Shown piece by piece: positions 5,475-6,119 of a DNA stretch of 64,000 nt. The translations under genes and the position numbers were made by a program. Source of the stretch: Escherichia phage Pu-Krd-SF1; the sequence record PQ249395; one strand, given 5' to 3'. How positions within the stretch are numbered: the stretch's first letter is position 1; each line of letters starts with the position of its first letter. The notes under the pieces are model-generated. The model was not told the origin of the DNA, ran no database searches, and worked only from the letters and a program-made list of their open reading frames with translations.

Positions 5475-6119
5475 TCATTCTAGTAAATCCCAAAGATCTA
5501 CGCTATTTCTTTTTGACTTTTCTCGGTTAGATTCCCAAGTGATTATTTCTAAATTTTTTACGCTTGCTATAATTTCCGGCGGAATTAAATTATCAAATCC
5601 ATATTTGATAGATACTTTATGATCGAGTTGATAAGCACCTTCTACACCGCACACTCCTATTTTATCAGCATTCGGCCATTTTGACCAAATTTTTCTTATT
5701 TTAGCTGACTTAGTTATAGAATGAACTCTACTAGCATATAATGCAAACTCTTTTCTTTTACCAGTCCATCGAGGATGTTTATCGCCTCTTTGCCATGGTC
5801 TGCTTATTCCGGATTAAACTTCCGAATTTTTAATAGCAACTTGTTTAATGCTGCATTTTCTACACGCATGTGTGGGTGTTCTATTTAAAAGCTGAATGCT
5901 TCTACTAAATTTAATACCGCACAAATCACATTTAGCGTCAACTATTTTATTACTATTCTTTGGCATTAATTCTATTGGAACAGATACTGTATCATGATAT
6001 GATACTTCATATCCTAGAATTGCCGACCACATTTTTGAATGATTTCTTGGTTTTATTGTAACAAACTTAGAAATAATCACTTGTTTCCTCGAGAATAGGG
6101 GCCGAAGCCCCACAATCAA
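5475..6119 (-). pseudogene. HNH (His-Me finger) endonuclease-like gene inserted between genes 18 and 19, interrupted by one in-frame TAA
   Basis: 101-codon N-part (CxxC…CxxC) ends at TAA 5814-5816; same frame stays open 112 more codons with no ATG and carries the AYQLDHKVS…N…N HNH-like motif; stop at 5475-5477. Confidence 0.55.
6098..6111 (-). terminator. GGGGC-UUCG-GCCCC hairpin just after gene 18 stop
   Basis: Perfect 5-bp GC stem with UUCG tetraloop on minus-strand transcript; weak U tract. Confidence 0.4.

Follow-up and report, generated by a model that had tools for sequence, protein, structure and literature searches.

An optional endonuclease-like gene between genes 18 and 19 of a T4-like phage, very probably disabled by a single recent nonsense change

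Free-standing homing endonuclease genes of the HNH type are known in T4-like phages, with mobA-E of T4 and Hef of phage U5 as examples (PMC2988022). In the degeneration cycle proposed for such elements, homing endonuclease genes are expected to decay by point mutation once they are fixed (PMC2988022). ORF19.1 of phage T6 has been present in GenBank since 1994 as a deposited ORF, and a literature search on ORF19.1, the Pu-Krd phages and an endonuclease at the 18/19 junction retrieved no functional study of the gene. The window analyzed here (64,000 nucleotides of Escherichia phage Pu-Krd-SF1, record PQ249395) contains an allele of ORF19.1 at the same locus as in T6, with the same GTG start and 201-codon extent and 97.5% DNA identity over 754 nt. 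Besides three amino acid differences, the window allele differs from that of T6 by a TAA at codon 89. This gene is very probably a T6 ORF19.1 allele that was disabled by one very recent C-to-T nonsense change, an ordinary event rather than a case of programmed read-through. The features of the locus, all on the minus strand, are as follows.

8131-9963, minus: gene 17, large terminase (ORF list).
6120-8099, minus: gene 18, encoding the 659-aa tail sheath protein, upstream of the insert (ORF list; annotated as tail sheath in Pu-Krd-SF5, whose record is identical; matched by the end of gene 18 in T4).
5475-6119, minus: the ORF19.1-like region in question, between genes 18 and 19.
5476-6119, minus: 644-nt insert comprising a hairpin, a Shine-Dalgarno sequence and the ORF19.1-like gene, in place of 8 nt (TACGGTGC) in T4 (alignment to NC_000866).
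6098-6111, minus: GGGGC-UUCG-GCCCC tetraloop hairpin that follows the gene 18 stop and precedes the Shine-Dalgarno sequence of the inserted gene (sequence and fold).
6087-6090, minus: Shine-Dalgarno sequence GAGG, 6 nt 5' of the GTG start.
5814-6080, minus: truncated frame with GTG start, 88 codons and then TAA; N-terminal zinc-finger domain.
5814-5816, minus: ochre TAA at codon 89, with T as the next base (UAA-U); CAA (Gln) in all copies translated from outside this lineage.
5475-5813, minus: C-terminal 112 codons and TGA, now untranslated; nuclease module with the motifs HPRW, YQLDH (His154, 5621-5619), NL (Asn176) and NREK (Asn185, 5528-5526).
5450-5467, minus: hairpin GGCCUG-UUUCGA-CAGGCC just past the insert (fold z = -3.1; T4 alignment).
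5441-5448, minus: distal T4-type late promoter motif TATAAATA, common to T4.
5380-5387, minus: gene-19-proximal T4-type late promoter motif TATAAATA, common to T4.
4874-5365, minus: gene 19, encoding the 163-aa tail tube protein, downstream of the insert (ORF list; Pu-Krd-SF5 annotation).
3216-4802, minus: gene 20, portal (ORF list).

Minus-strand translation of positions 6119-5475 yields one frame of 215 codons that starts immediately after the gene 18 stop (TAA, 6122-6120), contains one internal stop and ends with TGA at 5477-5475. An earlier note on this DNA, made from the sequence alone, had described an HNH endonuclease-like gene split by a single in-frame TAA without frameshifts, and both statements hold (TAA at 5816-5814, both parts in the one 215-codon frame); the strand that its description implied does not, the gene being on the minus strand. 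The 112 codons it assigned to the part after the TAA are likewise correct. Its 101-codon N-terminal part, in contrast, consists of 88 codons when read from the GTG at 6080-6078, the start annotated in both T6 and Pu-Krd-SF5, whereas the longer version begins with a TTG adjoining the gene 18 stop and its frame crosses the tetraloop hairpin (6111-6098). The note was also right that the HNH-like motif AYQLDHKVSIKYGFDN lies 3' of the stop (5636-5589) and that no gene occupies this junction in T4; the first in-frame ATG, GTG or TTG past the stop is the GTG at 5654.

The insert has precise boundaries and contains little beyond the hairpin, the Shine-Dalgarno sequence and the ORF. The tetraloop hairpin is kept in T6 and, being inside the insert, is not found in T4, whereas the hairpin at 5450-5467 is common to T4 and thus belongs to the native 18-19 intergenic region. 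Both late promoters of gene 19 fall outside the insert, so that gene 19, with late promoters of its own 3' of the insert, is independent of transcription and translation through it. A polar effect on gene 19 was accordingly considered and rejected, given these two motifs between the insert and gene 19. Beside the gene-19-proximal promoter, at about 5388-5391 (minus strand), the window carries a 2-nt AT insertion (GGGATATATAAATAC versus GGGATATAAATAC in T4 and T6), which leaves the promoter motif intact. A scan of positions 5300-6300 for sigma-70 promoters and terminators identified nothing exceeding shuffled sequences.

The protein encoded by T6 ORF19.1 is a full-length member of a phage family, as it matches phrog_5104 over residues 1-200 with an E-value of 4.5e-83. 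At the DNA level, the gene shows 97-100% identity to the 68 phage records that carry it. The first homologue search detected 46 proteins, mostly about 200 aa in length and matching the query from end to end, in T4-like phages of Enterobacter, Serratia, Shewanella and Pectobacterium, and an exhaustive profile search identified 1,455 representatives at E <= 1e-10; most of the representatives listed cover the whole profile (about 200 aa), and some consist of the C-terminal module only. A tblastn search found the family in 239 phage records, and a search of IMG/VR for related loci gave no confirmed relative. The position of the gene between gp18 and gp19 is the same in the window and in T6, in homologues with 35-50% identity (Shewanella phage Thanatos-2, Serratia phage CHI14 and Salmonella phage S16) and in a second Tequatrovirus allele (P0013/RB6 type).

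The earlier note had allowed that the two parts might normally be separate genes; the homologues that were checked for this combine both parts in one protein of about 200 aa, and the two parts thus evidently belong to what is normally a single gene. Two apparent split genes were rejected, namely, P0028, a contig-edge fragment, and S16 gp100.1, in which the annotation missed the GTG start and the full frame is open. The latter is annotated as a 106-aa protein from an internal ATG (L018, 1600-2221; NC_020416, about 89600-90220), and the full S16 homologue is an open frame of about 200 codons with a GTG start (VIISK...). The GTG start of the family leads to systematic under-annotation. The uninterrupted frame of about 200 codons is lacking in the window copy, with its TAA at codon 89, which is, on sequence grounds, a disrupted allele (pseudogene) of the T6 ORF19.1 family (PHROG 5104).

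Alleles at the 18/19 site vary in their central part. The P0013-type allele, about 53% identical overall, is located at the same site (L011, 3001-3651; RB6, KM606996, 95967-96614), and its leader and last ~55 residues match the T6 type almost exactly, whereas the middle is different; given the common ends and different middle, the alleles at this site are mosaic. A Thanatos-like metagenomic contig contains an extra 206-aa ORF 3' of gp19 (L013, 1345-1965) with no Pfam match, which may be another inserted gene.

Analysis of the protein sequence points to a two-domain architecture. The N-terminal domain contains a CxxC...CxxC zinc finger (Cys51, 54, 73 and 76; window 5930-5853), with all four cysteines invariant or nearly so in 37 homologues, and shows a weak match to the DUF4379 treble-clef (E 0.013), a match to the zinc-finger chains of kinetoplastid mS66 in a profile search of PDB sequences (E 0.007) and a weak match to a PHROG annotated as homing endonuclease. 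This four-cysteine domain is presumably involved in DNA binding. In the C-terminal half, the residues that are invariant or nearly invariant in the 37 homologues form the pattern H-P-R-W...Y, Y-Q-x-D-H-x-x-S-x-x-x-G...N-L-x-x-x-x-W-x-x-N-R-x-K, in which the D-H (His154), N-L (Asn176) and N-R-x-K (Asn185) signatures characteristic of the HNH/His-Me catalytic motif are invariant. The AF2 model (pLDDT 87.8) contains a beta-beta-alpha unit (in P0001 numbering, strands at 161-165 and 188-192 and a helix at 193-199) with the DH at a strand end, followed by the second strand and then by the helix bearing N-R-x-K, and is similar in fold to solved HNH nucleases. The C-terminal module is also fused to DUF7487 N-termini and is therefore a separable domain. 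The Pfam HNH models (PF01844, PF13392 and others) yield no match to the T6 protein at E <= 10 and none in a scan of 14 relatives; an NCBIfam scan produced no HNH match, a Foldseek search of the PDB gave nothing significant, and the profile search of PDB sequences retrieved zinc fingers only. Hence the labels 'HNH-like' and 'zinc-ribbon-like' of the earlier note are backed by the motif and the fold and receive no support from Pfam. The intact protein is, with these sequence motifs and the structural model taken together, probably a zinc-finger protein with an HNH-type nuclease domain. We infer its putative nuclease and homing activity, as well as the consequence of its truncation.

The identification of ORF19.1 as a candidate free-standing homing endonuclease comes from this architecture combined with a precise intergenic insertion and a patchy distribution, the gene being present in 68 of the 501 Tequatrovirus records. 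The constant gp18/gp19 position across genera could alternatively reflect an old accessory gene that was lost from many lineages, as opposed to an actively mobile element.

The nature of the disruption is apparent from the comparison of nearly identical genomes. Between genes 18 and 19, identity over 754 nt is 100% with Pu-Krd-SF5, SF6 and SF7 (from piglet faeces in Russia, with E. coli B as the host), 99.9% with SF3 and SF4, and 97-99% with about 60 further Tequatrovirus records, T6 included; across positions 1-25000, the window is 100% identical to Pu-Krd-SF5 and nearly identical to SF7 and SF6. Pu-Krd-SF4, in which this gene is annotated as an intact 606-nt CDS, differs from the window by a single mismatch in the 754 nt, at position 5816, where the coding strand reads C in SF4 (and in SF3) and T in the window, so that codon 89 is CAA (Gln) in the former and TAA in the latter. 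Alignment with intact homologues shows that CAA (Gln89) is the codon replaced, in T6 as in SF4. The frame is open, with Gln89, in T6 (two records), SF4, pSe_SNUABM_01, SYGD1, Aplg8 and WL-3, and the ORF comprises the intact 201 codons in T6, pSe_SNUABM_01, SYGD1, Aplg8 and WL-3. Altogether, all eight of the other copies of ORF19.1 that were translated, out of the 68 records with the gene, are intact, and the stop is present in the translated SF5 and SF6 copies. The exact 41-mer centred on the TAA occurs in 3 of the 68 gene-bearing records, namely, SF5, SF6 and SF7, and is absent from T6 and 64 others; the remaining records show 1-3 mismatches to the 41-mer, as expected from CAA and the known neighbouring polymorphisms. 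The change is thus confined to one near-clonal lineage and, since these three near-clonal phages share a laboratory of origin, the TAA effectively rests on that single lineage.

Compared to T6, the ORF in the window contains 11 synonymous and 3 non-synonymous differences in addition to the stop. All six differences located 3' of the stop are synonymous, and therefore the loss is very recent. This pattern indicates that the whole ORF was under purifying selection until very recently, and no decay has accumulated since the nonsense change. The earlier note offered a very recent nonsense mutation in an inserted endonuclease-like gene as one of two explanations, and it is this one that the single-base difference from SF4, the Gln89 present elsewhere and the restriction of the TAA 41-mer to three of 68 records bear out; the other, stop-codon read-through, is not supported, given the UAA-U context, the lack of a UAA-reading tRNA among eight and the lack of conservation of the stop in relatives.

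The similarity between SF4 (L016) and the window is unevenly distributed. Over a tract of some 3.5 kb (window ~5000-8500), which runs from the end of gene 17 through gene 18 and ORF19.1 into the 5' part of gene 19, the two sequences hardly differ, whereas the flanks in the surrounding 16 kb are mostly 2-4% divergent, and the fibritin/collar region (12000-13000) is far more divergent than that. The ORF19.1/gene 18 segment is therefore of very recent common origin in both lineages. The tract suggests recent recombination or co-conversion around the endonuclease gene among phages of one source, and homing-associated co-conversion is possibly behind it.

Taken together, these observations are best compatible with the following scenario. 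Some T4-like phages carry an optional gene of 201 codons inserted between genes 18 and 19. The window is part of the Pu-Krd-SF5/6/7 lineage, in which a spontaneous C-to-T transition at 5816 converted the Gln89 codon CAA to the ochre codon TAA. The base change and its direction, its confinement to one near-clonal lineage, the open frame of the other copies examined and the limits of the insert are established directly by the sequence comparisons. Translation from the GTG at 6080 would then end after 88 residues, so that at most a zinc-finger fragment is made and the nuclease domain would be silent and untranslated; gene 19 would be unaffected, served by its own late promoters 3' of the insert.

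The truncated allele is present in three near-clonal isolates, and it might be argued that the 88-residue zinc-finger domain is kept for use without the nuclease, either as a site-specific binder that blocks the intact enzyme of co-infecting relatives (e.g., SF3 and SF4) or as a non-toxic remnant; we regard this as unlikely. Should the fragment be useful on its own, SF4 and SF5 would represent a natural isogenic test of this sheath/tube-junction endonuclease family.

It is more doubtful still that the TAA is a sequencing or assembly error, with C as the true base and an intact gene. The difference is a single-base substitution, and all TAA records come from one laboratory. T-even DNA contains glucosyl-hydroxymethyl-C, which can disturb some base-callers. 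Against this, T is found in three separate deposits of differing length and orientation (SF5, 168,847 bp; SF6, 169,328 bp; SF7, 169,321 bp), and SF3 and SF4, which are of the same source, read C in the identical 754-nt context; the assemblies of SF3 to SF7 all originate from one laboratory, and a context-dependent systematic error should have struck SF3 and SF4 too.

Programmed or tolerated read-through, or suppression, by which ribosomes crossing the UAA would still yield a small, regulated amount of full-length endonuclease, is highly improbable. Both halves share one frame and the half 3' of the stop is undamaged, although a very recent mutation would leave it in just that state. The stop is located in the loop of a 6-bp hairpin (UUCGGA-AGUUUAA-UCCGGA); however, this hairpin is no more stable than those of shuffled sequences (z = -0.8) and, as the 754 nt of SF4 are otherwise identical, it is the same in the intact allele. 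Genes expressed by read-through would be recognized by a conserved stop together with a leaky context or a suppressor tRNA, and none of these is observed here: a stop at codon 89 occurs in no other copy or homologue, the nearest relative, SF4, has CAA with nothing else changed, termination in E. coli is reportedly most efficient at UAA followed by U (Poole et al. 1995), and none of the eight phage tRNAs has a UUA anticodon. A phage-encoded suppressor tRNA was rejected on the same count. Ribosomal bypass of the gene-60 type was also considered and rejected, since the parts are already in one frame and the sister allele simply has CAA.

Finally, that the two parts are separate functional genes, a zinc-finger protein and a nuclease independently expressed by re-initiation, is scarcely credible. 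In other contexts, the C-terminal module is joined to different N-termini (DUF7487) or makes up metagenomic ORFs of about 110 aa. In the window, however, the GTG at 5654 is the first in-frame start past the TAA, this GTG lacks a properly spaced Shine-Dalgarno sequence and would yield a 59-aa product missing the HPRW...Y segment, half of the conserved module, and the apparent short homologues, when checked, proved to be artefacts (P0028, a contig edge; S16 gp100.1, under-called).

The preferred reading, a recent nonsense change, is of limited general importance: an optional phage gene has very recently become a pseudogene, in an ordinary way. It nevertheless offers a clean and datable first step in the decay of a putative selfish endonuclease gene, consisting of one nonsense change and nothing else. 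Furthermore, the intact SF4 and ochre SF5 alleles form a natural pair, one base apart in 754 nt, that could serve to test whether the ORF19.1 product cleaves DNA and favours transmission of its own gene. As regards annotation, PHROG 5104 ('unknown function') becomes describable as a predicted zinc finger with an HNH-like nuclease tied to the sheath/tube junction, and the GTG start explains under-called ORFs such as S16 gp100.1.

The window encodes further candidate mobile elements within and around an eight-tRNA cluster (34896-36284, plus strand) comprising Leu(taa), Gly, Pro, Ser, Thr, Met/Ile(cat), Tyr(gta) and Arg(tct), in which, relative to the T4 set, Tyr is present and Gln is absent. Directly 5' of the cluster, a 210-aa ORF (34257-34889, plus strand) contains a textbook HNH motif, LQLDHIDGNNKNH...NLRLLCPNCH, with a Pfam HNH match below the curated cut-off (E 0.0027), and is probably a Mob-like free-standing endonuclease. 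Between tRNA-Tyr and tRNA-Arg, there is a 257-aa GIY-YIG ORF (35431-36204, plus strand; Pfam GIY-YIG, 1.4e-5; SegE_GIY-YIG, 5.3e-5) that is SegB-like in position.

Among structurally characterized proteins, the small nicking endonucleases Gme HNH (PDB 4h9d) and phage GVE2 HNH (PDB 5h0o) share only 9-16% identity with the ORF19.1 product and are single-domain proteins, whereas ORF19.1 has an added, predicted zinc-finger domain. The GVE2 enzyme works with the terminase, whereas ORF19.1 belongs to a headful-packaging T4-type phage and is absent from the type member, T4. In contrast to mobA-E and Hef, the putative nuclease of ORF19.1 is C-terminal and has no counterpart of the second CxxC pair of classic HNH; an hhalign comparison of the family profile with the canonical Mob-like HNH ORF of the same window aligned only QLDH, with a probability of 0.5%. 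In other respects, the gene is similar to these: it is a small gene in an intergenic gap between conserved genes, it is patchily distributed among close relatives, its product is predicted to be modular, combining a DNA-binding domain with a small nuclease domain, and it carries the invariant DH...N...N motif.
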